This document shows positions 2,302 to 62,993 of a stretch of 64,000 nt of DNA, piece by piece. Origin of the DNA: Escherichia phage Lw1; sequence record KC801932; one strand, written 5' to 3'. The position numbers and the translations under genes are program-made. How positions within the stretch are numbered: the first letter of the stretch is position 1; every line of letters starts with the position of its first letter. The notes beneath the pieces are model-generated. The model made no database searches. It was not told the origin of the DNA and saw only the letters and a list, made by a program, of their open reading frames with translations.

Positions 2302-3967
2302 GTATCAGAATATTCTGTCGGTAGGGAATACCCCGATCGAACTTGAATTCGATACTGCAAAGAAAACCCTGATCACGGGTAAAAATGGTGGTGGTAAATC
2401 CACACTGATCGAAGCGTTGACGTATGCTCTTTTTGGTAAGTCATTTCGTGATTTAAAAGTCGGGCAACTGGTAAACAGTGTCAACAAAAAGAAATGTCTG
2501 GTTGAACTGGATATTGAATACGGGAAAGATTCGTACAAAGTCGTTCGCGGACAAAAGCCGAAAGTATTCGAGATCTGGAAAAACGGTGATAAGTTAGCAG
2601 AAGATTCAGCAGCGGGTGATTATCAATCTCAGCTTGAATCCATGCTCAATATTAACCTGGTTGGATTCAAACAGGTAATCGTTTTGGGTACTGCTGGCTA
2701 TACTCCATTCATGGAACTGAAAACACCGGATCGCCGTAAACTGGTTGAAGACCTGTTGTCGCTATCGGTTATCAGTGAAATGGATAAGCTGAACAAATCA
2801 TATGTCCGTGGTGTTAATCAGCAGTTGGATACCCTGTCAATGCAGGTTAACCACATCCAGCAGCAGATCGCTACACACCAGCGCTTCATTGATGAACAGC
2901 GAGCTAAAGCGAACCAGAACAACGCACGATACAAAGAGATCTACGATAGCCACGTTGAAACCGCTAAGAATATCAAAGCACAGCTTATGCAGTTGCAAGC
3001 GGAGATCGCAGAAACGGTGATCACTGGCGCAGACCGAACGGAAGATATAAACAAACTCCGTGATGGATATACGCGCCTCTCTATGACTGTAGAACAGTTT
3101 AAAAAGCTGGAAGTGATGTATCAGAAAGGTGGTGAGTGTCCGGCCTGTAAACAGGCGATTACGCCCACTCCTGAACGCATGGAAGAGATCGCAAACAACA
3201 TCAAAGCGGGTACGCAACGATTAACGCTGATCAAAACCAAACAGGACGAGTTGCAAGGCATTATGAACGAGTTGCTTCAACAGCAACGCGCACTGAATGC
3301 TATGAAAACGAAATACGAAGCCCTGAAAGGTACGCTGCAAAATGAAGTTGCCAACGCTAAACGCGCACAAGCGATCATGGAACAGGCAAGCGCGGAAGTT
3401 GTTATTGATGAAGAACCTGTTAAGCAGTTGCAACAACAGGAAGCAGATCTGAACGATAAACGTCAAGGATATGTGAAAGAAAAATATATCCGTGGTATCG
3501 TTACAGATATGTTAAAAGATTCGGGTGTAAAAGCCAGCATCGTAAAACGTTATATCCCGTACTTCAACAAGCAGATCGCATACTATCTGGATCTGTTGGG
3601 CGCTGACTACCAGTTCACGTTAGATGATGAATTCAACGAATCAATCAAATCACTGGGGCGCGATGATTTTAGTTACGCATCATTTAGCCAGGGTGAACGC
3701 GCACGAATCAACTTATCGATTCTGTTTACATGGCGCGACGTAACAAGCAAAGTTTCCGGCGTGGACCTGTCTCTTCTGATTATGGACGAAGTTTTCGATA
3801 ACGCTCTTGATAAAGAAGGTGCGTTTGCTGTAGGGGCTGTTCTGAATGGTATTGATGGTAATATCATGGTGATTAGCCACAACGATTTAGACCCTGGTGA
3901 TTTCGATCGTCATATCGTCATGGCTAAATTGGGGCGCTTCTCGAAGATGGAAATCAAGAAGTCTTAA
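2276..3967 (+). CDS. 46: Recombination endonuclease subunit gp46 (Rad50/SbcC-like ATPase)
   Basis: 563 aa; Walker A GKNGGGKST; coiled-coil middle with CPACK zinc hook; N-terminus matches remembered T4 gp46; GTG start. Confidence 0.9.
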   Translation: MKLNFKKIKYQNILSVGNTPIELEFDTAKKTLITGKNGGGKSTLIEALTYALFGKSFRDLKVGQLVNSVNKKKCLVELDIEYGKDSYKVVRGQKPKVFEIWKNGDKLAEDSAAGDYQSQLESMLNINLVGFKQVIVLGTAGYTPFMELKTPDRRKLVEDLLSLSVISEMDKLNKSYVRGVNQQLDTLSMQVNHIQQQIATHQRFIDEQRAKANQNNARYKEIYDSHVETAKNIKAQLMQLQAEIAETVITGADRTEDINKLRDGYTRLSMTVEQFKKLEVMYQKGGECPACKQAITPTPERMEEIANNIKAGTQRLTLIKTKQDELQGIMNELLQQQRALNAMKTKYEALKGTLQNEVANAKRAQAIMEQASAEVVIDEEPVKQLQQQEADLNDKRQGYVKEKYIRGIVTDMLKDSGVKASIVKRYIPYFNKQIAYYLDLLGADYQFTLDDEFNESIKSLGRDDFSYASFSQGERARINLSILFTWRDVTSKVSGVDLSLLIMDEVFDNALDKEGAFAVGAVLNGIDGNIMVISHNDLDPGDFDRHIVMAKLGRFSKMEIKKS

Positions 3968-4664
3968 ACTTACAGTTGTCAAAATGCCATCGTTTCATAT
4001 TGGTGGCATCACCAACTTTAGCGCAATGGGGGCAAGTTAATTGCTCCCTTTTCTTTTGTATTTTTCTGTCTGGGTTCTTGGTACAATATGGAATATGACT
4101 GTTCAAGTAATGCACTGTCGATTCTGTACCACAATGAGGACAAGAACCGCGCTCCGATACTACGTTTCTGTTTTTATGTGCTCGCATGACTCCTGCAAAT
4201 GCATTCACTTTCCCTTCATTGCCTGGCTTGTTCTTGCAGTTGTCGAAGTGCCAGCGGTTCATATTACCTACTAAGCCGGACGTATTGCAATGAGGACACG
4301 TAACCCTGTTCTGTTGAAGTTTGGCCTGTCTCATGCGTAAGCGTGTCTCTTCGCTGAACTCTTTTTGTTTCTGGGCTTCAAGTGCTTTTTCTTTTAACCA
4401 TCCATAGCGGCGGTTTGCTGTACGCGCAGACGATCGAGAAGTGCCGACTGTAAGCATGTTAGCAGCATAAATTAGTTTATGGTTGCCTGGATACATCTTA
4501 ACCAATAGCAGATGTGCTATGAAATGTTGACGTGCTGACAGTTCAACCAGATTTTCGGGATCGTCCGATCCTCCCATACATTTTGGAACGATGTGGTGTT
4601 TCTCTTTGTACTCTGCATCCGTTCCGGCAGTCATGAGTTGTTCGTAAATCTTATGATAATTCAT
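3954..4664 (-). CDS. Free-standing HNH homing endonuclease (Mob-like)
   Basis: HHIVPKCMGGSDDPENLVELSARQHFIAH HNH motif; C-terminal repeated CPHC/HFDNC zinc-binding modules; overlaps gp46 3' end on opposite strand. Confidence 0.8.
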   Translation of the reverse strand: MNYHKIYEQLMTAGTDAEYKEKHHIVPKCMGGSDDPENLVELSARQHFIAHLLLVKMYPGNHKLIYAANMLTVGTSRSSARTANRRYGWLKEKALEAQKQKEFSEETRLRMRQAKLQQNRVTCPHCNTSGLVGNMNRWHFDNCKNKPGNEGKVNAFAGVMRAHKNRNVVSERGSCPHCGTESTVHYLNSHIPYCTKNPDRKIQKKREQLTCPHCAKVGDATNMKRWHFDNCKFKTS

Positions 4665-17529: not shown

Positions 17530-17607
17530 GGCCCCTTAGCTCAATTGGTTAGAGCGAACCCCTCATAAGGGTGTGGTTTCCGGTTCAAGTCACGGAAGGG
17601 GCCACCA
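17530..17607 (+). tRNA. tRNA with anticodon CAU (Met or Ile2 type)
   Basis: Hand-folded cloverleaf: 7-bp acceptor stem GGCCCCT/AGGGGCC, D-arm GCTC/GAGC, anticodon loop CTCATAA, T-loop TTCAAGT, encoded CCA; A-G mismatch in anticodon stem and a bulged A in T-stem. Confidence 0.65.
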
Positions 17608-24165: not shown

Positions 24166-24183
24166 ATAGCACTTTTTGTTTAA

Positions 24184-24239
24184 AAAGCCCTTGCATACGT
24201 GCGAGGGCTTTGTTATATTACACACATCGAAACGAAACA
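24184..24239 (+). promoter_or_regulatory. PeSL-like promoter cassette, copy 1: TTGCAT-17-TATATT with spacer hairpin and conserved leader
   Basis: -35 24191-24196, -10 24214-24219 (TGT extended -10), hairpin aaagccc/gggcttt; leader ACACACATCGAAACGAAACAG. Confidence 0.55.
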
Positions 24240-24256
24240 GACAAAAGGAACATCCC

Positions 24257-24529
24257 ATGCAAATCACTAAAGAACTCGAAGGCAAAGTAATCAACCTGAC
24301 ATACCGTGCGCGTTTTGAAAAACTGGCTAATGGTGGCGAATCTTTGGGTGAAGCGGTAGCGTTATTCGAAAGACTTCGGGTTAAACGTGTTGTTGATGGT
24401 TGGGTTATTGCTCTCCCTGTTGCAGATGAAGATAAAGCAGTATATGACCCAGTTGCCGATTCATGGGATATTGAAATCTGTTTAGTTAACGTTGAAGTAG
24501 AACTTTGCTTCGAAGAAGAAAATAATTGA
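24257..24529 (+). CDS. Hypothetical protein (90 aa)
   Basis: First ATG after cassette 1 with AAAGGAA RBS. Confidence 0.45.
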   Translation: MQITKELEGKVINLTYRARFEKLANGGESLGEAVALFERLRVKRVVDGWVIALPVADEDKAVYDPVADSWDIEICLVNVEVELCFEEENN

Positions 24530-24537
24530 AATAGTTC

Positions 24538-24590
24538 TTGTATTGTGTGTAGGGTAGTGTGGTATCTTACACACATCGGAACAAAGGAGA
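24538..24590 (+). promoter_or_regulatory. PeSL-like promoter cassette, copy 2 (divergent: TTGTAT-19-TATCTT, related leader)
   Basis: Leader ACACACATCGGAACAAAGGAGAG followed by ATG 24597. Confidence 0.45.
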
Positions 24591-24596
24591 GACACC

Positions 24597-24887
24597 ATGA
24601 AAAATAAAGAATACGACCCAGCAGAAATTAAAGAACGGTTATCAGTAGCAAGGAGATTCCTTGAATCTATCGATCCAGATAAACTTGGAAAACTCCCAGA
24701 CACGATTTGTTTAAATTGTGGTCGCTGTGTGTTGGTTGGTAAATGTTGCGACAACCCAAACATTGTCGTCATGGAACGGAAAGAAGTTTCGCCGGAAGTG
24801 TGGGATAAGATTCAGGAAATCATCAAAAACCCTCCAGAACCAACGAAACGTTTACGAGAACTTATGAGCAAGGAATACACGTTATGA
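24597..24887 (+). CDS. Hypothetical Cys-containing small protein (96 aa)
   Basis: AAGGAGAG RBS; CLNCGRC..GKCC cysteine cluster. Confidence 0.45.
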   Translation: MKNKEYDPAEIKERLSVARRFLESIDPDKLGKLPDTICLNCGRCVLVGKCCDNPNIVVMERKEVSPEVWDKIQEIIKNPPEPTKRLRELMSKEYTL

Positions 24888-26364: not shown

Positions 26365-26424
26365 TAGACATCCTCCCTTTATTCTATTTACTAAATAGTA
26401 AATATCGGGATACTTGAGGCGATT

Positions 26425-32047: not shown

Positions 32048-32440
32048 ATGGCTGTTAACCTTCGCTTACTATACAGCGATATCGACCCGAACTTAACGAA
32101 AGACTGGAACAAAGACGTTACCTCCTCGAAAGGGGCGGCAGCAGTAAAGAACAGTCTAATCGGTATCGTAACGACACAAAAAGGCACACGTCCTTTCGAT
32201 AGCAACTTTGGTTGTGAGATAGGAGAGCAGATTTTCGAGAACATGAACCCGTTAACAGCGGAATCAGTAAGAACCTCGATTGTATCCGCGATCCGCGCAT
32301 ACGAACCCCGTGTTTACAATCTGAATGTTGAAGTGATCCCACAGTATGACGAAAACGCGATCACCGTAACCGTTTACTACAGTATCATTGATGAACCGGA
32401 AGAGATTGAAAAAATCAAACTCCAGCTATCATCCTCATAA
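32048..32440 (+). CDS. 25: Baseplate wedge subunit gp25
   Basis: 130 aa; strong match to remembered T4 gp25 (LYSDIDP, DWNKDV, KNSL.GI.TT.KG.RPFD..FGC, FENM.PLTA, IKLQL.SS). Confidence 0.8.
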   Translation: MAVNLRLLYSDIDPNLTKDWNKDVTSSKGAAAVKNSLIGIVTTQKGTRPFDSNFGCEIGEQIFENMNPLTAESVRTSIVSAIRAYEPRVYNLNVEVIPQYDENAITVTVYYSIIDEPEEIEKIKLQLSSS

Positions 32441-32442
32441 CA

Positions 32443-32476
32443 AAAAGCCCCTTCCTTTCGGTTGGGGCTTTTTTAT
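32443..32476. terminator. Bidirectional hairpin terminator (aaaagcccc ttcctttcggtt ggggctttttt)
   Basis: Stem with A-run on one side and T-run on the other, between convergent gp25 and minus-strand ORF. Confidence 0.5.
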
Positions 32477-32477
32477 G

Positions 32478-32711
32478 TTAACGGGTTTTGAGATTAACCA
32501 GCCATGAAGTTTGTGTTTCTAAGCTAATCGCTTTCCAGTCATACGCGACACTATATCCAGAATAAGTTTGACACACAACAGCATTTTCATTCAGAAACTT
32601 AACTTTGTGCTTCGCTTCCTCTTCGTTCAAAGCAGCGCACACGAAGTTCTTTTCATACACGCCACCGTTAGGCTGGATAATGGTTTCTTCAATCAGATAT
32701 ACACTGTTCAT
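32478..32711 (-). CDS. Hypothetical protein (77 aa)
   Basis: ORF ATGA-coupled to upstream ORF. Confidence 0.4.
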   Translation of the reverse strand: MNSVYLIEETIIQPNGGVYEKNFVCAALNEEEAKHKVKFLNENAVVCQTYSGYSVAYDWKAISLETQTSWLVNLKTR

Positions 32712-32923: not shown

Positions 32924-32940
32924 TTTCTCGTTCCTTTTGG

Positions 32941-32998
32941 CTGTTCCGTTTCGATATGTGTAATATAGCAAAGCCCTCACCATTAGGCAAGGGCTTTT
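32941..32998 (-). promoter_or_regulatory. PeSL-like promoter cassette, copy 3 (TTGCCT-17-TATATT, hairpin, conserved leader)
   Basis: On minus strand: -35 at 32985-32990, -10 at 32962-32967, leader CACATATCGAAACGGAACAG. Confidence 0.55.
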
Positions 32999-33005
32999 TG
33001 TATTT

Positions 33006-44397: not shown

Positions 44398-44582
44398 TAA
44401 TCAGCAAGCCTTATGTTATTTGGATCTGGAACGAAAGTATCTTTCTGGGTAATCATGAACACCAGGAAAGCGGCGATTTCAGGATCATCAATAACGTTGA
44501 ACTTGCGTTTGCCTTTCCAGCGTACCGCGATTTTACCATCATCGAGTTTTCTGATTGCTGCAACTTCTGCTTTCTGAGTCAT
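44397..44582 (-). CDS. Hypothetical protein (61 aa)
   Basis: First ATG (44582) after PeSL cassette, AGGAGG RBS. Confidence 0.4.
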   Translation of the reverse strand: MTQKAEVAAIRKLDDGKIAVRWKGKRKFNVIDDPEIAAFLVFMITQKDTFVPDPNNIRLAD

Positions 44583-44589
44583 AATTACC

Positions 44590-44648
44590 TCCTTCGTTTC
44601 GATGCCCCTAATATAACAAAAGCCCTCACGCGAACGCAAGGGCTTTTT
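44590..44648 (-). promoter_or_regulatory. PeSL-like promoter cassette, copy 4 (TTGCGT-18-TATATT, hairpin, related leader)
   Basis: On minus strand: -35 at 44634-44639, -10 at 44610-44615; leader GGGGCATCGAAACGAAGGAGG. Confidence 0.5.
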
Positions 44649-44750
44649 TAATCTTTTTATCGACAGAAAGGACAACTAAACTTATCGCCGCTTCCACCAT
44701 GACGAGGACAGCAAATTTTTTCGATTGGTGTCATTGTTAAAATTTTCATT

Positions 44751-50179: not shown

Positions 50180-50581
50180 TTACTCTCCAAGTACGTAAAC
50201 AAAGCGGTCTTCGATTGAATCGTTAACACATTCGTAAATTCCCCCAGCGCGTACAGCTTTACGAATGCCGGATTTTACGATTTCCATGATCTCTTTGTTG
50301 CTTCCCCATACATTCAAATTGAAGTATAGCGCACATTCGATTGGATAGTCTTCTACGTTGCGATACACATCATCACTTTCACATACAAACAGTATGCGCT
50401 TTTCTTCTCCATATTCGAAGTAAATGCTAAACGCGTTCATACTGTTTTTATCAACAGTGATTTGAGTGATTTTAACGTTCGGTTTGCTTTTGAGTTCAGC
50501 AAGAACACTCTGAATAATAGATAACGCATTCAGTTTAATAAGTCCGCATTTTCCTACAATAACACGATGTGATGTACTCAT
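50180..50581 (-). CDS. Hypothetical protein (133 aa)
   Basis: ORF downstream of hairpin-promoter at 50610. Confidence 0.4.
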   Translation of the reverse strand: MSTSHRVIVGKCGLIKLNALSIIQSVLAELKSKPNVKITQITVDKNSMNAFSIYFEYGEEKRILFVCESDDVYRNVEDYPIECALYFNLNVWGSNKEIMEIVKSGIRKAVRAGGIYECVNDSIEDRFVYVLGE

Positions 50582-50609
50582 AATTCAACCCTCAATAGTT
50601 GGTACACAC

Positions 50610-50640
50610 ATAATAAAAAAGCCCCTGCAAAAATGCAAGG
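50610..50640 (-). promoter_or_regulatory. Terminator hairpin doubling as promoter spacer (TTGCAT-17-TATTAT)
   Basis: Minus strand: -35 50633-50638, -10 50610-50615; spacer forms hairpin gcccttgca/tgcaggggc followed by T-run. Confidence 0.4.
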
Positions 50641-50648
50641 GCTTTCGA

Positions 50649-51296
50649 TTAAATAATTTGCTTTTCTTCTAACAGTTTCGCGGTATGGTTAACCATGCGA
50701 GCATAATCACGGGCTTCTTTCTTCGTATACTTGAAGCCAGCGTTATAGCTTGCCAGCGCCTTTTTCAAGTCGCCTTTGTGGTAATCAAGCCAGTATTCCA
50801 GTTCATGAATGGCAAACTTAGAACCTCCCCGAAGGGATTCGAGCTTATTGATTACTACGCGTTTGGAATATGATTTATCCATCCGTGCGGAAGCACTGTT
50901 TACAGTGACTTGCCAACAGCCATAAGCATGATGACCTTTTTTGCCCTTTCCGGTGTTCTCACATGCGCGAGATTCGATCCAGGCAATAGCCGCTAAATGA
51001 TATCCCAAACGTTTCGATTTTTCTTTTTCAGCAGGTTTTGCAGTCGTTAGATCATAGTCGTTGCCAACTCTGAAAGCATACTCCAAAACCTTTTTCTGCT
51101 TTGGTGTAATTTCGTCCAATTCCTTGACATATGCAGGGGCATTGGCTGGTGCTTTCTTGATCACTGTTGCCTGTTGAAGCGGAAGTGTTGACTGAACAGC
51201 AGGAAGTTTTTCGATGAATTCTCCTAGCGGATCTGTCTTTGCGTGACCAGAAAAAGAGCATAAGAAAATGCTGGTCGCTAAAATAATTTTCTTCAT
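50649..51296 (-). CDS. Lytic transglycosylase-like protein with signal peptide
   Basis: Signal peptide; SLT-like catalytic region (AIAWIESR) and YNAG motif. Confidence 0.5.
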   Translation of the reverse strand: MKKIILATSIFLCSFSGHAKTDPLGEFIEKLPAVQSTLPLQQATVIKKAPANAPAYVKELDEITPKQKKVLEYAFRVGNDYDLTTAKPAEKEKSKRLGYHLAAIAWIESRACENTGKGKKGHHAYGCWQVTVNSASARMDKSYSKRVVINKLESLRGGSKFAIHELEYWLDYHKGDLKKALASYNAGFKYTKKEARDYARMVNHTAKLLEEKQII

Positions 51297-56880: not shown

Positions 56881-57191
56881 TTACTTTTGATTCTGTTGCA
56901 TTCTTCCGCACACTCTTTTTCCGCAAGGATTTTGCGAACAACCGCGTTTCTGATTTTCCAGAGATAATCGATCATCTGCATATCTTCGGGAGTGTGATAA
57001 CCTTTCATATCGCATTCAAATACGATAGCATCGCGTTCTGACATTGCCATTATCGCGGTAGCCGAACAAATGGTCATCCCACTATATTTTTCAATCAACG
57101 ATTCCAGTGTACGCTTTTCTGCCGGAATGTCAACAGTTATCGGAACAGGACGGATTCTTGTAGTCGAATCGTCGAAGGATTGATAAATCAT
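56865..57191 (-). CDS. Hypothetical protein (108 aa)
   Basis: ORF directly downstream of radical-SAM-like gene. Confidence 0.35.
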   Translation of the reverse strand: MIYQSFDDSTTRIRPVPITVDIPAEKRTLESLIEKYSGMTICSATAIMAMSERDAIVFECDMKGYHTPEDMQMIDYLWKIRNAVVRKILAEKECAEECNRIKSKWGVL

Positions 57192-58342
57192 TTTAACTCC
57201 ACTGCATAAACATCGGTTTCGGGGGCTTTGTGTACGCGCATATCTTTACCACATACCGCATAAGCCGGACAGTTGCGACAACCGTTATGATCCGTGTTGC
57301 CTGTCAGTTCTTTACGGAACTGTTTTGTTTTCGGGTGTTCCCAGATATCTTTGATAAAATCATCGGCTTCAAGGACATTCAAACCTTCACCCCAGCCACC
57401 TTCAACCCAACGTTCGGTAAACGAGCAAGGGAAGAATTCGCCTTTTTCGTTGATGTAAGAGCTAAACATCGTCGCTTCACAATCTTCCGCATACTGCTTG
57501 TATTGTTCGAAGTTCGGGTGTCCCTCCATCGCTTCAACGAAAGCTGGGGCTGAACAGCTATCGAATCCAAATCCTACACCAGAATCAAGGCAGTATTCAA
57601 CAAGTTTTTTGTATTGTTCGCGGGTGACTGTATCCCAGTTCTTACCACGTCCCTTTTGTTTCAGACCCAGGAACACGATCGCGTTGACTTGTTTCAGGCG
57701 CGGATCATTACGCACAGCATCAACAACGGTAAACGCATCATCATAGGTCTTTGAGCTAACCATGAAATGTAGGTTGATTTGCTGTTGTCCTGCTTCTGCC
57801 AGGTTTGCGACGGAATCGAAAGCAACATCGAAGCCAGCATGTTTATAAACCGATACTGCAACAGCCCCAGCAACCGCCGCTAAACGCGCTGCAACGTCTT
57901 TTGATACATCAGCAATGGTAAGGTTCGGTACAATGCCTTTAGAACGCGCATAGGCCATCATATCGAACATATCAGGGTTTGTTTGTCCCTGTGCATCAGC
58001 ACCGAGTGCGCATTGGGTTAACCAGGGCATTTTATCAATGATGGATTTGAAAGAAGCAAGATCCATATTGTAGCCGTTCGGGTTATTGGACTTGTAACAG
58101 AAACCACACAGCTTACCAGCGGGGCCATTACATTTAGTTGTGATCTCGATATCGAGGATAAAAGGAAAATGACTATAAATAGGATCGTCAGCAGGAGTTT
58201 TGCCCCAAGTCATCATATGACCTGTTTTCATATCAAAATTAAAATTAACCTCTTCGGAACGATAGATTTTCTTTCCTTTCGCTTCCAGTAGAAGTCCAAC
58301 AGGCGTTTTGATATGTTTGGCGTTTACTTTAACGTGTCTCAT
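57188..58342 (-). CDS. Radical-SAM-like Fe-S enzyme (approx 384 aa), non-canonical Cys spacing
   Basis: TTKCNGPAGKLCGFCY (Cx7Cx2C) near N-terminus, further Cys cluster CRNCPAYAVC near C-terminus; start at ATG 58342 with AGGT RBS. Confidence 0.45.
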   Translation of the reverse strand: MRHVKVNAKHIKTPVGLLLEAKGKKIYRSEEVNFNFDMKTGHMMTWGKTPADDPIYSHFPFILDIEITTKCNGPAGKLCGFCYKSNNPNGYNMDLASFKSIIDKMPWLTQCALGADAQGQTNPDMFDMMAYARSKGIVPNLTIADVSKDVAARLAAVAGAVAVSVYKHAGFDVAFDSVANLAEAGQQQINLHFMVSSKTYDDAFTVVDAVRNDPRLKQVNAIVFLGLKQKGRGKNWDTVTREQYKKLVEYCLDSGVGFGFDSCSAPAFVEAMEGHPNFEQYKQYAEDCEATMFSSYINEKGEFFPCSFTERWVEGGWGEGLNVLEADDFIKDIWEHPKTKQFRKELTGNTDHNGCRNCPAYAVCGKDMRVHKAPETDVYAVELK

Positions 58343-58354
58343 AGGAACCTCATA

Positions 58355-59083
58355 ATGTATTACGTTTACAGAATCACAAATGTTATAGAGAACAAGCACT
58401 ATTATGGATCAAGAAAACCTAAAAAGTCAATGCTTGCTTCCGACGATTTAGGGAAACACTATTTCAGTAGTTCCCGTGATAGTCATTTCATCCAAGATCA
58501 GAAGGAAAATCCAGGACACTACAAATATAAAGTAATCGTATCGGGGTTGTCAAGGGAAAAGGCGATGAAACTTGAGAAAAGGTTACACGAAATCTACAAG
58601 GTGGACACGAACCCACATTTTTATAACAAACACATACACAACAGCGTTGATTTTTCATGTACACCAGAAACAGGAAAGAAGATTTCACAAACACACCAGA
58701 AATATGCAGCAAAGAAAATTTCAGAATCACATAAAAGGCGATTCAAGGAAGGTATAGCATCACATAAAGGAGAGAACAACCCACGATACAACGATCATCG
58801 GTCTTATGAAGAGATACACGGAGAAGAAAAAGCGGAGACTATACGCAAAGCACAATCTGAATCAAGAAGAGGAAAAGGCAATTCCCGCGCGGTTACGTGG
58901 AAATTTACTTCCCCTAATGGAGAAGAATTTTTAGTTGAAGGAGAATGTAAAAAGTTTTGCAAAGACAGAAATATTTCCATGCGTAAACTGAAAACCTATC
59001 TGGGTGAAGTCATCACAACATGCGATAAACCCTACTATATCTCTAAGAATACCGTAGGATGGAAATTAGAAAAGATTATTTGA
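58355..59083 (+). CDS. Free-standing GIY-YIG homing endonuclease (Seg-like)
   Basis: N-terminal YYVYRITNVIENKHYYGSRK GIY-YIG motif from ATG 58355 (AGGAA RBS); basic C-terminal DNA-binding region; sole plus-strand gene in minus-strand island. Confidence 0.7.
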   Translation: MYYVYRITNVIENKHYYGSRKPKKSMLASDDLGKHYFSSSRDSHFIQDQKENPGHYKYKVIVSGLSREKAMKLEKRLHEIYKVDTNPHFYNKHIHNSVDFSCTPETGKKISQTHQKYAAKKISESHKRRFKEGIASHKGENNPRYNDHRSYEEIHGEEKAETIRKAQSESRRGKGNSRAVTWKFTSPNGEEFLVEGECKKFCKDRNISMRKLKTYLGEVITTCDKPYYISKNTVGWKLEKII

Positions 59084-59330
59084 ATCTTCTTTTACGTTCG
59101 TCAGCCAATTCTTGTTTGTACGTTTTAATGTACTTCCCGTTAAGAATTCGAAGTTGCTGGAAAACTTTGTTGCACAAAGCACGTTTCGCTTTGTATTCTG
59201 GTGTATTGCGGATTGATTCGATCGTCATACCCATTTCGTTTTTAGGGTAAGCGCTCAACTCCCTGCCGATCTCTCTGTACCAGTTGCTTAACTGGTCACG
59301 CTTTGCTTTGTACTCTTCAAAAGTTAACAT
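59076..59330 (-). CDS. Hypothetical protein (84 aa)
   Basis: ORF convergent with GIY-YIG gene. Confidence 0.35.
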   Translation of the reverse strand: MLTFEEYKAKRDQLSNWYREIGRELSAYPKNEMGMTIESIRNTPEYKAKRALCNKVFQQLRILNGKYIKTYKQELADERKRRFK

Positions 59331-59644
59331 AACAATCTCCGGTTTAGTTTCTATGTGTGTAAGGTATCATTACCATACACACAAAGCAAGCTATATTTTC
59401 AAAATTAATCGGAATAATACAAAACAGAACACAGCAGAAAACACCCAACATACAACGAAGAACAACGCGATTCTTTTCAAATCATTCAAGGAATCTTCCA
59501 AAATCGGTTGCAACATCTTTCGGATCTGCTTCAAGTTCATACAGTTCACGAGCTAACGAACTTGGTTTGATATCACGCCCTAAATGGGCACTAACGGCAC
59601 TTAACCACTTAATGTAAGGATCGAACTTGCTCATGGTATGCCTT

Positions 59645-59896
59645 TTATTTGATGCGTACTGCGTTGAAAGCCTGGTTACGAAGTTCGAAAGCCTGTTCAA
59701 GCTGTTCCGTGGTGAACAGAGGGCTGTCAGTGTTCGTAGTGAAACTGCAAATCGTTTTGCTGTCTGCGTTGACTTCTTCAACAACGATATCATAACCCCA
59801 GATCCCGCTAAGTTCGCACTTCACATTCCGGTACTTGATGTATACCGCAACAACATCTTCTTTCTTATAATTCCGGCTTTTGTAGATGATTTCCAT
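59645..59896 (-). CDS. Hypothetical protein (83 aa)
   Basis: ATG 59896 with AGGAGG RBS just downstream of conserved leader. Confidence 0.45.
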   Translation of the reverse strand: MEIIYKSRNYKKEDVVAVYIKYRNVKCELSGIWGYDIVVEEVNADSKTICSFTTNTDSPLFTTEQLEQAFELRNQAFNAVRIK

Positions 59897-59899
59897 GAT

Positions 59900-59932
59900 A
59901 TCCTCCTTCGTTTCGATGTGTGTAATATAACA
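59900..59932 (-). promoter_or_regulatory. PeSL-like cassette, copy 5 (extended -10 TGTTATATT plus conserved leader; no -35 or hairpin)
   Basis: Minus strand TGTTATATTACACACATCGAAACGAAGGAGG; upstream half of cassette absent. Confidence 0.4.
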
Positions 59933-59967
59933 GATCAGGGTTATCGAGTTTTAGCAATTCGTGCTAA

Positions 59968-60246
59968 TTATGCCATTTTCTTAGCGATTTTCCAGGCGGC
60001 TTTGAACGCTGGAACGTCTTCAATCTCAACCCAGAAACCAGATCCGAAACCATCATTGTAGCAAGGACAACCGTCGCAGTAGTTTTCCCAGGTCATCACT
60101 TCACCACCAACAGAAGCACCAGTTTCCATAGCGCGTAACGCATCTTCAACTTTTTCCAGTTTTTCGGCGTTGTCGTCGTAAATGGTGAAGTACCATTTGC
60201 CGTTGTATTCGTTACCCAGTTTGATTGCTTCGCGAACAAGTTTCAT
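59968..60246 (-). CDS. Hypothetical protein (92 aa)
   Basis: Start at ATG 60246 (MKLVRE) downstream of cassette 6; CDGCPC motif. Confidence 0.45.
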   Translation of the reverse strand: MKLVREAIKLGNEYNGKWYFTIYDDNAEKLEKVEDALRAMETGASVGGEVMTWENYCDGCPCYNDGFGSGFWVEIEDVPAFKAAWKIAKKMA

Positions 60247-60261
60247 GATGATTTCCTTTTT

Positions 60262-60320
60262 GTCTGTTTCGTTTCGATGTGTGTAATATAACAAAACCCC
60301 TCACCATAGGCAAGGGGTTT
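60262..60320 (-). promoter_or_regulatory. PeSL-like promoter cassette, copy 6 (TTGCCT-17-TATATT, hairpin, full conserved leader)
   Basis: Minus strand: -35 60308-60313, -10 60285-60290; leader ACACACATCGAAACGAAACAGACAAAAAGGAAA nearly identical to copy 1. Confidence 0.55.
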
Positions 60321-60335
60321 CTTTAACAAAACGTG

Positions 60336-60584
60336 CTATTTTGTTTCTTCGAGGATTCGAAGGATTTCGGCGCGGGGGATCGGATGTTTTGCCAGCTCAC
60401 GGATCGCATGATCAAGATGCGTTTTACACATCAAGAATTCTTTCCCGCATTTGTGGCATGTCGCATACATATCACCATGTATACGGTCGATTCCATCCAT
60501 CACATAATACTTCATAAAGACGTAAGGTGTTCCACCATTCCAGCCCCGCGCAACGTGATTACACTCTCGATTGAACCATGACAT
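60336..60584 (-). CDS. Hypothetical protein (82 aa)
   Basis: ORF; CHKCGKEF zinc-ribbon-like motif. Confidence 0.35.
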   Translation of the reverse strand: MSWFNRECNHVARGWNGGTPYVFMKYYVMDGIDRIHGDMYATCHKCGKEFLMCKTHLDHAIRELAKHPIPRAEILRILEETK

Positions 60585-61957: not shown

Positions 61958-61969
61958 GATGTTTTCCTT

Positions 61970-62030
61970 TCTGTGTTTCGTTTCGATGTGTGTAATATAC
62001 AAAAAAGCCCCTGCATTGCAAGAGGCTTTT
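61970..62030 (-). promoter_or_regulatory. PeSL-like promoter cassette, copy 7 (TTGCAA-16-TATATT, hairpin, conserved leader)
   Basis: Minus strand: -35 62016-62021, -10 61994-61999; leader ACACACATCGAAACGAAACACAGAAAGGAAAA. Confidence 0.5.
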
Positions 62031-62033
62031 GAA

Positions 62034-62993
62034 TTATTTTGGCAATTTTTTGATTAATGCTTGTAAGTCGTTGATTTTAGAAAACAGTTCATCGCTATAT
62101 CGCATCAATTCCTGTCTGCGTTTCGCAGCCCATGAAACCAATGTTTTTGCATCATCAACACCATAAGTGTATCCATCAGCGGATAGACGAATGATCGCAC
62201 GAGAACCGTAGTCAGCATTTGCATGTTCGATTAAAAACTTCACCGCTTCGAGAAGTTCGGAATCTTCCTTACTGACTAGAACACCGTTATCATCAGGAAA
62301 TTCGTTTTCATCATGAACACTTGCAAAATCAAGGTCGATATAATCATCCTGATTCACCTGGCGGCGCGTGTTGTCTTCGAGACTTTCAATCTGTGAAACC
62401 ATAGTTTCGACCGGATCTCTTTCAATTGGTTCTCTGTCGGTTCCTACTTCTTCCAGGAACATCAACAACCAACCAGGGATCAACGAATCAAAAGAACGCT
62501 GAATATGGCTTGCATGGTCACTACCCAGTATTTTCAACGCACAACCGTCTTTAGTAGCGGTATGGATATAGATAACATTACGGTCACGCATACGGCGGCT
62601 ACCATGAGAAAGATAGCGACGTAGCGAAGTGTTATGTCCATAGCGTCCCAGATCCAGGTTACACAGGGAATCAATAGCCCCACGGTTAGCAATCCGGTAG
62701 CGCGTACCAGTTTCAAATCGCAACTTTTCGGTAGTCACTGGTGTGAATTCTTCGTAAAGAATGTAATATTCTTTCGGGATCTCGCGATCAAGAACTCTCA
62801 ATACACCATTCTCCGAAGGAGTGAGCACAGAACGAACATTACCGTTCGCATCGCAATGTACCTGCATGACTTGAGGATAATAGAACCCTTTAGCCTTTAG
62901 GGTGTATTCATGCAAACGACTCAAGCGCTTTCTGTAGTACCATTTACCAGTAACAAACGGGGTTGCAGATCCTGCTAAACTAATTGGTTTCAT
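62034..62993 (-). CDS. Hypothetical protein (319 aa)
   Basis: Long ORF ATGA-coupled to DUF262-like gene. Confidence 0.4.
   Translation of the reverse strand: MKPISLAGSATPFVTGKWYYRKRLSRLHEYTLKAKGFYYPQVMQVHCDANGNVRSVLTPSENGVLRVLDREIPKEYYILYEEFTPVTTEKLRFETGTRYRIANRGAIDSLCNLDLGRYGHNTSLRRYLSHGSRRMRDRNVIYIHTATKDGCALKILGSDHASHIQRSFDSLIPGWLLMFLEEVGTDREPIERDPVETMVSQIESLEDNTRRQVNQDDYIDLDFASVHDENEFPDDNGVLVSKEDSELLEAVKFLIEHANADYGSRAIIRLSADGYTYGVDDAKTLVSWAAKRRQELMRYSDELFSKINDLQALIKKLPK

Follow-up and report, generated by a model that had tools for sequence, protein, structure and literature searches.

A repeated, PeSL-like promoter-hairpin-leader cassette in front of small genes of the RB43-like Escherichia phage Lw1

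The window analyzed here, a stretch of 64,000 nucleotides from Escherichia phage Lw1 (KC801932), comes from a T4-type phage of the Pseudotevenvirus (RB43-like) group with about 90% identity to the Citrobacter phages Xman, CfP1 and Miller. Spread through it is a unit of about 75 bases, called a cassette below, that precedes small genes and is predicted to close one transcript, open the next and bring along a standard ribosome-binding leader. Read from 5' to 3', its parts are an A-tract, a hairpin, TTGCNN, a spacer of 16-17 nt, TGnTATATT, ACACACA, the leader (TCGAAACGAAAC..AGGA) and the ATG. A search with an 80-column nhmmer profile finds eight cassettes in the window (E 1.1e-12 to 1.3e-19; Table 1), and the next match has an E value of 0.016. 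The seven copies listed in a first-pass annotation of this DNA were all present where it had placed them; the eighth, at 59330-59405 on the minus strand, was absent from that list and was found by nhmmer. The cassettes lie on both strands over 38 kb, with four copies crowded into 2.7 kb (59.3-62.0 kb) and none within the baseplate block at 26.4-32.4 kb.

All eight copies occupy the gap between an upstream stop codon, which is located 0-18 nt ahead of the cassette or within its 5' end, and a downstream Shine-Dalgarno (SD) sequence and ATG, and they run on the same strand as the genes. The ribosome-binding site and small ORF that had been proposed to follow each copy are thereby confirmed. The downstream ORFs are 61-133 amino acids long and fall in PHROG families without known function; they can be taken as real genes because each matches its family over the full length (E 1e-44 to 1e-71). 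The only domain found in the cassette-driven genes is DUF5417 (in frd.1), along with a sub-threshold TacA1-like match.

Table 1. Cassettes and related elements in the window
Feature	Position	Strand	Hairpin layout	Search result	Predicted fold	Parts	Neighbouring genes
Cassette 1	24176..24251	+	A	nhmmer E 6.2e-18	-19.3 kcal/mol, z -4.7	hairpin 24184-24211; -35 TTGCAT 24191-24196; 17-nt spacer; TGt + TATATT 24211-24219; predicted start A at 24226; leader runs to SD AAGGA	before: gp30 DNA ligase stop (24165); after: ORF 24257-24529
Cassette 2	24524..24598	+	B	nhmmer E 3.4e-13	-21.2 kcal/mol, z -5.6	hairpin TGTGTGTAGGGTA/TATCTTACACACA around -10 (TATCTT 24563-24568) and discriminator; no U-run after	after: ORF 24597-24887
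Cassette 3	32930..33003	-	A	nhmmer E 2.3e-16	-20 kcal/mol, z -4.9	TTGCCT-17-TATATT with TG; leader variant ACACATATCGAAACGGAAC	before: ORF 33650-33006; after: ORF 32923-32708
Cassette 4	44578..44653	-	A	nhmmer E 4.3e-15	-18.9 kcal/mol, z -4.2	G-rich discriminator AGGGGCA; short leader TCGAAACGAAGGAGG	after: ORF 44582-44397
Cassette 5	59330..59405	-	B	nhmmer E 1.1e-12	-17 kcal/mol, z -4.2	hairpin TGTGTGTA.GGTA/TACC.TACACACA over -10 TACCTT	after: ORF 59330-59076
Cassette 6	59892..59968	-	none ('half' cassette)	nhmmer E 2.4e-13	weak, -6.0 kcal/mol, z -2.1	only TGt-TATATT, leader and SD kept; no -35 at proper spacing	begins at frd.1 (60246-59968) stop codon; after: ORF 59896-59645
Cassette 7	60253..60327	-	A	nhmmer E 1.3e-19	-19.3 kcal/mol, z -4.1	stem CCCC/GGGG	after: frd.1 (DUF5417, 60246-59968)
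Cassette 8	61964..62035	-	A	nhmmer E 3.7e-14	-13.9 kcal/mol, z -2.9	bulged stem; 16-nt spacer; no TGn	after: ORF 61957-61754
Family relative	50574..50652	-		cmsearch 43.5 bits, E 1.6e-6			after: ORF 50581-50180
Terminator-only relative	32437..32511	+		cmsearch 40.2 bits, E 9.5e-6			directly 3' of gp25 (32048-32440)

Two relatives of the family were added by a structure-aware model (R1, run with cmsearch), which was seeded with an alignment of copies of equal geometry (A2); a MAFFT alignment (A1) misregistered hairpins with 3-nt and 4-nt loops. The relative at 50574 shares the hairpin and combines TTGCAT and TATTAT at a spacing of 17 nt, but its leader is unrelated to that of the cassettes. The relative at 32437 consists of a hairpin (AAAAAGCCCC..GGGGCTTTTTT) with no downstream ORF on the same strand, and is probably a two-way terminator separating converging gene blocks. 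In place of the TTGC of the promoter-bearing copies it reads TTCC.

The promoter elements of the cassettes are well defined. The -10 hexamer TATATT (5/6), at first ascribed to every copy, is present in six of them, the other two having TATCTT and TACCTT, and the accompanying TGn is found in seven of the eight. Among 38 distinct copies, the most informative columns are those of CTTGC and, after a spacer of 16-17 nt, TGnTATATT, together with the A-tract that precedes them. Of the 6 positions of TTGACA, the -35 shares no more than 3-4, and because of this a general promoter scan lists just one copy. A late promoter was considered and rejected, the -10 region (TATATTAC) being unlike the T4 late box (TATAAATA). 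A literature search for transcription start or transcriptome data on Pseudotevenvirus or Slopekvirus phages gave nothing relevant.

The hairpin occurs in two layouts within the window. In layout A, seen in five copies, it lies over the -35 and has a GC-rich stem of 12-13 bp and a loop of 3-4 nt, preceded by an A-run and followed by a U-rich run (AGGGCTTTGTTATATT); in layout B, seen at 24524 and 59330, its arms (TGTGTGTA...TACACACA) enclose the -10 and the discriminator. The copy at 59892 has no comparable hairpin, and its counterparts in Xman, CfP1, Miller, RB16 and JC03 are likewise hairpin-less. The initial description, in which every copy had a TTG -35 inside the hairpin, therefore holds for five of the eight copies and does not extend to these three. 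When the hairpins were folded, seven of the eight copies proved stable (-13.9 to -21.2 kcal/mol, z -2.9 to -5.6), the five layout-A hairpins falling between -13.9 and -20 kcal/mol with z from -2.9 to -4.9. Covariation also supports the hairpins. In 38 distinct copies, 95.5% of cells are paired as against 54-64% in slid controls, 7 of the 12 pairs change on both sides, and none of 500 shuffles reaches the observed value, in an alignment that was fitted to the model and so favours structure. The layout-B arms likewise covary among orthologs (TGTGTGT/ACACACA, TGGGTGT/ACACCCA and TGGGT/ACCCA): those of cassette 2 do so with the KP27 ortholog, and for cassette 5 the compensatory TGGGTGT/ACACCCA is found in CfP1, Miller, RB16 and RB43. 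The position of the hairpin can shift, since at one orthologous site it lies over the -35 in RB43 and Miller and over the -10 in the window and KP27; Miller has in addition a third layout, with the stem-loop upstream of the -35.

These hairpins had been read as terminators for the upstream genes, and this prediction fits layout A but not the two layout-B copies. The GC-rich stem, short loop and flanking A-run and U-run of layout A resemble an intrinsic terminator, as does the placement of the relative at 32437 between converging blocks. Independent annotators called these hairpins terminators in Miller, CfP1 and KP27; the site orthologous to cassette 1 is annotated as a terminator in the first two and as a terminator plus promoter in KP27. 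A terminator scan passes the cassette 1 hairpin at 24184-24211 as a terminator-like site, and the other layout-A hairpins just miss its T-count rule. The elements differ from ordinary intrinsic terminators in that the -35 is in the 5' arm of the hairpin and the U-run doubles as the promoter spacer. Furthermore, the layout-B hairpins are followed by TCGGAAC or TAGAAAC rather than by a U-run, and termination therefore does not explain their conservation.

The leader is fixed, poor in U, and ends in the Shine-Dalgarno sequence. Its 19-mer ACACACATCGAAACGAAAC has six matches in the window at up to 3 mismatches, where 0.03 are expected. Compared with 62 control regions of the window, all eight translation-initiation regions fall below the median in structure, and they contain 0-6 U residues against a control mean of 8.0. 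A scan of the whole window against Rfam 15 at gathering thresholds returned no match. The tRNA that ARAGORN places at 17530-17607 was likewise not returned by Rfam at these thresholds.

The cassette is widespread in related phages. It occurs at 1518 places in 195 phage records, mainly of Pseudotevenvirus and Slopekvirus (RB43- and KP15/KP27-like phages), with 6-10 cassettes per genome in most of these records and 15 in RB43, where further copies lie at 10-12, 26, 157 and 178 kb. It is also carried by 25 IMG/VR stretches, mostly contigs of 142-183 kb where sized. One might ask whether the repeat reflects chance similarity or a single local duplication, and the crowding of four copies into 2.7 kb could be cited in favour of this. 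The probability of such an origin is nevertheless practically negligible, given the profile E values and the excess of leader 19-mers, the distribution over both strands and 38 kb, the orthologous sites in other genera and the further RB43 loci. The outcome that would have undermined the first-pass annotation, a local duplication missing from relatives, is accordingly excluded, and the search of related T4-type genomes that it recommended has been answered by the 195 records.

Comparison with relatives places six of the eight cassettes where homology breaks or identity switches. Beside cassette 2, at 24602, the homology shared with all four relatives breaks. In the interval from 59 to 62 kb, each of the four cassettes coincides with a switch in the identity profile: cassette 5 has breakpoints at 59330 and 59397; cassette 6 has one at 59968-59970, where identity rises from 87% to 97%; just upstream of cassette 7, ORF 60336-60584 is missing from CfP1, RB16 and RB43, with a joint at 60340-60341; and cassette 8 has joints at 62030-62052 relative to JC03, RB43 and RB16, while identity to CfP1 and Miller goes from 67% to 100% across it. 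This part of the genome is variable, in that only a single phage record covers at least 80% of 57-64 kb in one match. The two cassettes at 32930 and 44578 have no joint within 30 nt in a comparison with RB43 alone. Around cassette 1, identity to RB43 is 90% in the ligase 3' end, 75% in the hairpin and 89% in the following ORF; the corresponding values for KP27 are 83%, 100% and 96%. Miller and CfP1 each contain two matches to the segment 24211-24251, which comprises the -10 and leader, one on either side of an extra ORF. Transfer of a gene together with its cassette was considered for Pectobacterium phage POP18 and rejected, as tblastn finds no counterpart of the POP18 downstream ORF in the window or the compared loci.

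The link to gene shuffling that had been suggested for the repeat thus finds support in the six copies that coincide with joints or switches. Because the same 40-75 bp or so recur many times per genome and across related phages, the cassettes would act as portable homology, where recombination inserts, deletes or swaps neighbouring small genes; the comparison supports this role without proving it.

Elements of this kind have been described before. Promoter-early stem-loops (PeSLs) are known from RB49/phi1, T4/PST and KVP40/nt-1 (Arbiol et al. 2010, PMC2839356; Comeau et al. 2014, PMC4122927). In RB49/phi1 they have the same parts, their promoter and terminator activities were demonstrated with lacZ reporters, and mini-circles were found whose crossovers lay in the segment from the -10 to the ATG; for RB43, 'PeSL-like sequences' close to g43 receive a passing mention there, with data not shown (Arbiol 2010, PMC2839356; Comeau 2014, PMC4122927). 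A literature search for PeSLs gave no paper treating RB43- or KP15-like phages. The cassettes resemble PeSLs as repeated intergenic units with an A/T-rich stretch, reaching from the upstream stop to the downstream SD and ATG; in their sigma-70-type -35 and -10, about 17 nt apart; in a stable stem-loop placed variably with respect to the promoter; in standing ahead of small, functionally uncharacterized genes of variable regions, at sites adjoining indels and replacements that distinguish close relatives; in the apparent crossover between -10 and ATG; and in the occurrence of a 'half' cassette that lacks one part (59892), as in Comeau 2014 (PMC4122927). They differ from PeSLs in the stem, which is AAAGCCC..GGGCTTT here rather than polyG/polyC, in a -35 that keeps only TTGC and is compensated by TGn where the PeSL -35 is a near-perfect TTGACA, and in a transcribed leader (ACACACATCGAAACGAAAC) that is far more uniform. 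The lineage, that of the RB43 and KP15/KP27 groups, is also different.

Every PeSL feature that can be tested in sequence is present (gap position, promoter, stem-loop, variable regions, and an association with indels that is not exclusive), and the PeSL reading of the first-pass annotation came through each such test that was run. Since the cassette sits at many points where related phages differ in gene content, it is, as judged at the sequence level, a further example of the PeSL kind already described and not a new kind of element. It also fits an earlier description of RB43 transcription. According to Nolan et al. (2006, PMC1524935), the predicted RB43 early promoters have a G at -33, G/C at -36 and an A-rich stretch from -40 to -44, to which the (G/C)CTTGC and A-tract of the cassette correspond, and many of them precede novel ORFs. 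In its passages considered here, that study handles promoters and terminators separately and does not describe an overlap with a hairpin, a leader in common or a connection with mosaic joints.

Modules naturally have their edges at gene boundaries, and so some coincidence of cassettes with joints is to be expected in any case. If the cassettes were shared expression signals only, the positions of the joints would be incidental, with selection simply keeping those rearrangements that fall between genes. Breaks at gene boundaries without a cassette, such as those at 59647, 60588 and 57186-57191, agree with this account; there are many homology breaks across the 64 kb and most are away from cassettes, and two inserts present only in the window are explained as homing-endonuclease genes. 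We nonetheless consider it rather unlikely, because the extra ORF of Miller and CfP1 lies between two -10/leader copies, pointing to a crossover inside the repeat; relatedness switches within cassette 1, with a KP27-like hairpin and an RB43-like distal leader; and discriminators have been exchanged between paralogs (ACACATA at window position 32967, AGGGGTG in the RB43 ortholog). By analogy, the mini-circle junctions of the RB49/phi1 PeSLs, which fall in the corresponding part, would also speak for recombination within the unit. A more active role in recombination is conceivable as well. The stem-loop may do something other than, or in addition to, terminating transcription; selection could act on a DNA hairpin or cruciform beside the fixed leader as a structure-specific entry point for phage recombination nucleases (endonuclease VII or gp46/47). 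The cassette would then go beyond passive homology and be an active site of recombination by which small genes pass from one phage genus to another. The argument for such selection is that hairpins enclosing the -10 are kept by compensatory changes without a U-run and that the hairpin has moved at one site, and the proposal as a whole seems quite improbable.

Two further alternatives concern expression rather than recombination. The leader, (A/G)TCGAAACGAAAC..., could be kept mainly because it acts in cis, as an RNA signal for joint post-transcriptional control of the cassette genes (a site bound by a protein or RNA of phage or host, a determinant of nuclease resistance or a translation enhancer), with promoter and hairpin being secondary. 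The window, RB43, KP27, Pantoea phage Phynn and POP18 share one leader consensus, which stays constant even where the stems differ widely (POP18 has GGGG/CCCC and TTGACT), ATCGAAACGAA matches the -10 in information content, and the leader is poor in U and unstructured. However, the hairpin and promoter are kept with other leaders at 50574 in the window and at 26374 and 12199 in RB43, no predicted structure or candidate binding protein has been identified, and the leader seems unlike the U-rich RegA sites. This alternative is therefore judged unlikely, and the regulatory-RNA role initially proposed for the leader is so far unsupported, with no Rfam match and a leader predicted to be unusually unstructured. 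A middle-mode promoter dependent on a phage activator is very improbable. In the KP27 GenBank record the motif is labelled 'putative middle promoter; discovered using MEME', a label based on motif discovery only. The motif shares with T4 MotA middle promoters a TAnnnT -10 with extended TGn and a TGC-containing upstream box, the TGC within CTTGC loosely resembling the MotA box TGCTT (the copy at 59330 reads TTGCTTTG), and extended -10 promoters can remain active when -35 recognition is blocked, as by AsiA. The placement and spacing of the box are different: the TTG occupies -35 to -33, 16-17 nt from the -10, whereas the MotA box, (a/t)(a/t)(a/t)TGCTTtA, is centred at -30 and 11-13 nt from the -10. 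Moreover, neither motA nor asiA is annotated in the RB43 record, and Nolan et al. (2006, PMC1524935) report no motA ortholog or middle-promoter consensus for RB43, and asiA orthologs for other phages only. A MotA-dependent middle promoter was rejected on this misfit and on the failure to find the activator genes in the RB43 annotation.

We conclude that the unit is likely to be a compact expression cassette of the PeSL kind, through which this RB43-like T4-type phage expresses small and probably early genes. In the common layout, transcripts arriving from upstream would be stopped by the 12-13 bp GC-rich hairpin and its U-rich run. Host RNA polymerase with sigma-70 would then restart, using the TTGC in the 5' arm of the hairpin as a partial -35, the U-run as spacer and the following TGnTATATT, and transcription would begin about 7 nt downstream, at an A of ACACACA. 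The unstructured, A/C-rich leader of about 30 nt would give every gene the same efficient ribosome-loading site. With termination, restart and a leader of its own, each small gene would therefore be insulated from its neighbours and separately expressed.

For annotation, the precise consensus should allow the starts and ends of these transcription units to be called. It also corrects gene starts, as in Phynn, where a CDS is annotated through a cassette, and it replaces the 'middle promoter' label of KP27. The cassette is moreover predicted to be a compact, portable terminator-promoter-leader part. For the biology of the RB43- and KP15-like phages, many of which are therapy candidates for Klebsiella, Enterobacter, Cronobacter and Citrobacter, the cassettes mark points at which small genes of unknown function are gained, lost and swapped, and some of the linked genes may have host-takeover or anti-defence functions. 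The PeSL idea is thereby extended to another lineage, with clear covariation evidence for the stem-loops, and the underlying picture is unchanged.

The recurrence described in the first-pass annotation is real: its 19-mer has six matches in the window at three or fewer mismatches, against 0.03 expected, and the similarity of the cassette copies is convincing by eye in an ungapped alignment. A profile made from that alignment finds eight units (E 1e-12 to 1e-19; next best E 0.016). All seven units originally listed are among them, and the fifth cassette along the window had been overlooked. Across 38 distinct copies, taken from the window and its relatives, the consensus is AAAAAGCC-CTTGCat-(loop)-GCAGG-GGC-TTTTGtTATATTAC-ACACATCGAAACGAA-ACAGAnAAA-AGGAA-(4-6 nt)-ATG, and in seven of the eight units the hairpin lies over either the -35 box (layout A) or the -10 box (layout B). 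A covariance model covering hairpin, promoter and leader gained two further relatives, one of which (32437-32511) has TTCC in place of the TTGC of the others and no same-strand gene downstream, so that it appears to be a plain terminator.

Coordinates of the cassettes, their relatives and associated features in the window
Feature	Position	Strand	Remarks
Cassette 1	24176-24251	+	layout A (over -35)
Cassette 2	24524-24598	+	layout B (over -10)
Cassette 3	32930-33003	-	layout A
Cassette 4	44578-44653	-	layout A
Cassette 5	59330-59405	-	layout B
Cassette 6	59892-59968	-	no hairpin
Cassette 7	60253-60327	-	layout A
Cassette 8	61964-62035	-	layout A
Cassette relative	50574-50652	-	hairpin and promoter as in cassettes; leader differs (covariance model)
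Terminator-type relative	32437-32511	+	hairpin and U-run immediately 3' of gp25 (covariance model)
End of ligase stop codon, upstream of cassette 1	24165	+	
Ligase 3' end			identity: RB43 90%, KP27 83%
Cassette 1 hairpin	24184-24211	+	identity: RB43 75%, KP27 100%
Cassette 1 -35 TTGCAT	24191-24196	+	
Cassette 1 spacer		+	17 nt
Cassette 1 TGt + TATATT (-10)	24211-24219	+	
Cassette 1 likely start A	24226	+	seven bases past -10
ATG downstream of cassette 1	24257	+	
Next ORF (90 aa)	24257-24529		identity: RB43 89%, KP27 96%
236-aa ORF	3954-4664	-	opposite-strand; PHROG homing-endonuclease family, E 7e-63; weak zinc-ribbon matches
256-aa ORF	58313-59083	+	opposite to surrounding cluster; PHROG homing-endonuclease family, E 5e-26

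All eight cassettes have a stop codon upstream and a Shine-Dalgarno (SD) sequence with ATG downstream, on the strand of the gene. The ORFs behind them are real genes, each matching a phage protein family over its full length (E 1e-44 to 1e-71); the families are all of unknown function, one being the T4 frd.1 family (DUF5417). The two ligase-locus cassettes lie directly past the gp30 DNA ligase gene, within a short run of small ORFs that precedes the baseplate gene gp27. Stretches of the window match the T4-type Pseudotevenvirus (RB43 group) and are about 90% identical to Citrobacter phages Xman, CfP1, Miller and IME-CF2 and to RB43, with weaker matches to Klebsiella phages of the KP15/KP27 group (Slopekvirus). 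The window is colinear with 32.9-98.2 kb of RB43, interrupted by many indels. When the entire window was searched against Rfam with gathering thresholds, it gave zero matches, and the search likewise missed a tRNA with anticodon CAT that ARAGORN places at 17530-17607 (+) and that is annotated as tRNA-Ile in RB43.

The five layout A copies form a 12-13 bp stem that includes the -35 box (-13.9 to -20 kcal/mol, z -2.9 to -4.9). In the layout B copies at 24524 and 59330 (-21.2 and -17 kcal/mol), the spacer is paired with the -10 hexamer and discriminator in a 13-bp stem, TGTGTGTA..TACACACA. Folding of the cassette at 59892 yielded no comparable hairpin. In an alignment of 43 copies (38 distinct) that was fitted to the model itself, 95.5% of cells are paired, versus 54-64% with slid partners, and seven of the 12 stem pairs have changes on both sides; no shuffle reached the observed values. 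These results support selection acting on the stems. Orthologs of layout B covary as well, with TGTGTGT/ACACACA in the window and Xman, TGGGTGT/ACACCCA in CfP1, Miller, RB16 and RB43, and TGGGT/ACCCA in KP27. The second ligase-locus site has layout A in RB43 and Miller versus layout B in the window and KP27, and one more cassette in Miller has its hairpin upstream of the -35 box, arguing that the stem-loop is retained while its position relative to the promoter is free.

The proposal that the hairpin terminates the upstream gene fits layout A, which reads as an intrinsic terminator: independent groups marked the same hairpins as terminators in Miller, CfP1 and KP27, and in a terminator scan one layout A hairpin passes and the others narrowly miss the T-count rule. 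It does not extend to layout B, whose hairpins are retained by compensatory change and yet fall outside the usual terminator rule. Layout A would most likely be a terminator fused to a promoter, with each part in double use. The 5' arm of the hairpin would supply TTGC as a partial -35 box, the U-run would provide the spacer, and TGnTATATT would provide an extended -10. The -35 box agrees with the consensus at only three or four of six positions, and so the extended -10, together with the A-tract that precedes the promoter, is inferred to provide much of the strength. Transcripts would start about 7 nt past the -10 with a leader of about 30 nt that is almost free of U. For the translation-initiation regions of all eight copies, less structure is predicted than for the median of 62 control regions from the same window, and they contain 0-6 U (control mean 8.0). 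The cassette would then halt upstream transcription, restart it, and provide every small gene with efficient ribosome loading. Conservation of the leader equals that of the -10 box, which, together with the conservation of layout B, leaves room for a DNA-level role of the stem-loop or an RNA-level role of the leader; such roles are possible but unsupported.

A different label, "putative middle promoter", is attached to the motif in the KP27 record on the basis of MEME alone. The spacing of the cassette boxes speaks against a middle promoter, as does the lack of an annotated motA or asiA in the RB43 record. Nolan et al. (2006, PMC1524935) describe RB43 early promoters with features compatible with the cassette box, report no motA ortholog in RB43, and list asiA orthologs only in other phages. 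The discriminators, which separate the -10 from the predicted start, fall into two classes, ACACAC and G-rich (AGGGGT, GGGGGT, AGGGGC), as drawn from window copies 44615 and 32967 and RB43 copies 67361, 79238, 100922 and 178647. The class differs at an orthologous site (ACACATA in window 32967, AGGGGTG in RB43 67361), which might stem from conversion among copies or from the existence of two kinetic promoter classes.

Promoter-early stem-loops (PeSLs), to which the cassettes had been likened, are repeated intergenic units of phages RB49 and phi1 with an A/T-rich stretch, sigma-70-type -35 and -10 boxes, a stem-loop at one of five promoter-relative positions, and SD plus ATG at the 3' end (Arbiol et al. 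2010, PMC2839356; Comeau et al. 2014, PMC4122927). They occur in hyperplastic regions in association with indels, and experiments showed that they act as promoters and terminators and give rise to mini-circles whose crossovers lie between -10 and ATG (PMC2839356; PMC4122927). T4/PST and KVP40/nt-1 have PeSL sets of other sequence, including "half" cassettes (PMC4122927). The window cassettes display every PeSL feature that can be judged from sequence. They differ from the described PeSLs in sequence, which makes them a new family, in having a weaker -35 accompanied by TGn, and in an unusually uniform leader. For their lineage (RB43 and KP15/KP27 groups), the literature searched holds only a passing mention of "PeSL-like sequences" near g43 of RB43, with data not shown.

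The unit recurs in related T4-type genomes, with an 87-nt version at 1518 places in 195 phage records: Pseudotevenvirus, Slopekvirus, Pantoea phage Phynn, Cronobacter phages S13 and LPCS28, and a few others. Most of the records listed have 6-10 places per genome; RB43 has 15 copies with graded leaders, distributed over the genome. In IMG/VR, the exact 19-mer is found in 25 stretches, on contigs mostly of 142-183 kb. Pectobacterium phage POP18, an unverified record without taxonomy, has a complete cassette (locus L013, 370-450) with stem AAAGGGG..CCCCTTT, -10 TATTCT and the shared leader TCGAAACGAAACAGACAAAAGGAAC; its -35 (TTGACT) is better than that of the window cassettes, and its GGGG/CCCC stem differs. 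Neither the window nor the RB43-group loci compared contain a counterpart of the ORF behind it. The leader consensus is identical across genomes even where stems differ, which points to selection on the leader or frequent exchange. In Phynn (locus L014, 400-828), annotated CDS 221 begins at locus position 400 and spans the whole cassette; a start codon follows leader and SD at about 485, and the gene as deposited therefore probably begins too far upstream.

The suggested link to gene shuffling can be followed at the ligase locus. An extra ORF is present there in Miller and CfP1, and window 24211-24251 (-10 plus leader) aligns on either side of it, as would be expected if a crossover had taken place inside the repeat. 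At 24602, where cassette 2 reaches its 3' end, homology is lost to all four relatives. Relatedness shifts across cassette 1, the ligase being closer to RB43 and the hairpin and next ORF closer to KP27, which suggests exchange between Pseudotevenvirus and Slopekvirus at 24176-24529. Between 57 and 64 kb, no more than one phage record covers 80% or more of the query in a single match. Joints against six relatives there fall at 59330, 59397, 59968-70, 60340-41 and 62030-52, all of them cassette edges, and the 60-nt identity profile shifts at all four cassettes. Across 61964-62035, CfP1 and Miller rise from 67% to 100%, and homology is lost in RB16, JC03 and RB43.

In all, six of the eight cassettes are located at a joint. 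Breaks in the window are mostly found away from cassettes, some of them at gene boundaries without one; at 57186-57191, for example, relatives have an additional small ORF. The gene for a radical-SAM protein with a SPASM domain match (57188-58399, -) adjoins this variable small-ORF region. Two inserts found only in the window are opposite-strand homing-endonuclease genes. The 256-aa ORF, which has no Pfam match, is probably a free-standing homing endonuclease gene; the 930-bp stretch containing it (58159-59091) is missing from all six relatives compared, and homing or GIY-YIG endonucleases are annotated in this part of the genome in some other relatives. The 236-aa ORF is carried by a 775-bp insert between the gp46 and gp45.2 homologs that is missing from RB43. 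Breaks elsewhere and these inserts argue that the cassettes are only one of several routes to mosaicism, a view shared by Comeau et al. (PMC4122927).

The original finding was correct and its interpretation sound. The cassettes add one more family to a known kind of element and occur in many published genomes, where they are partly annotated; the main additions are a precise consensus, covariation evidence for two hairpin layouts, and documented joints.
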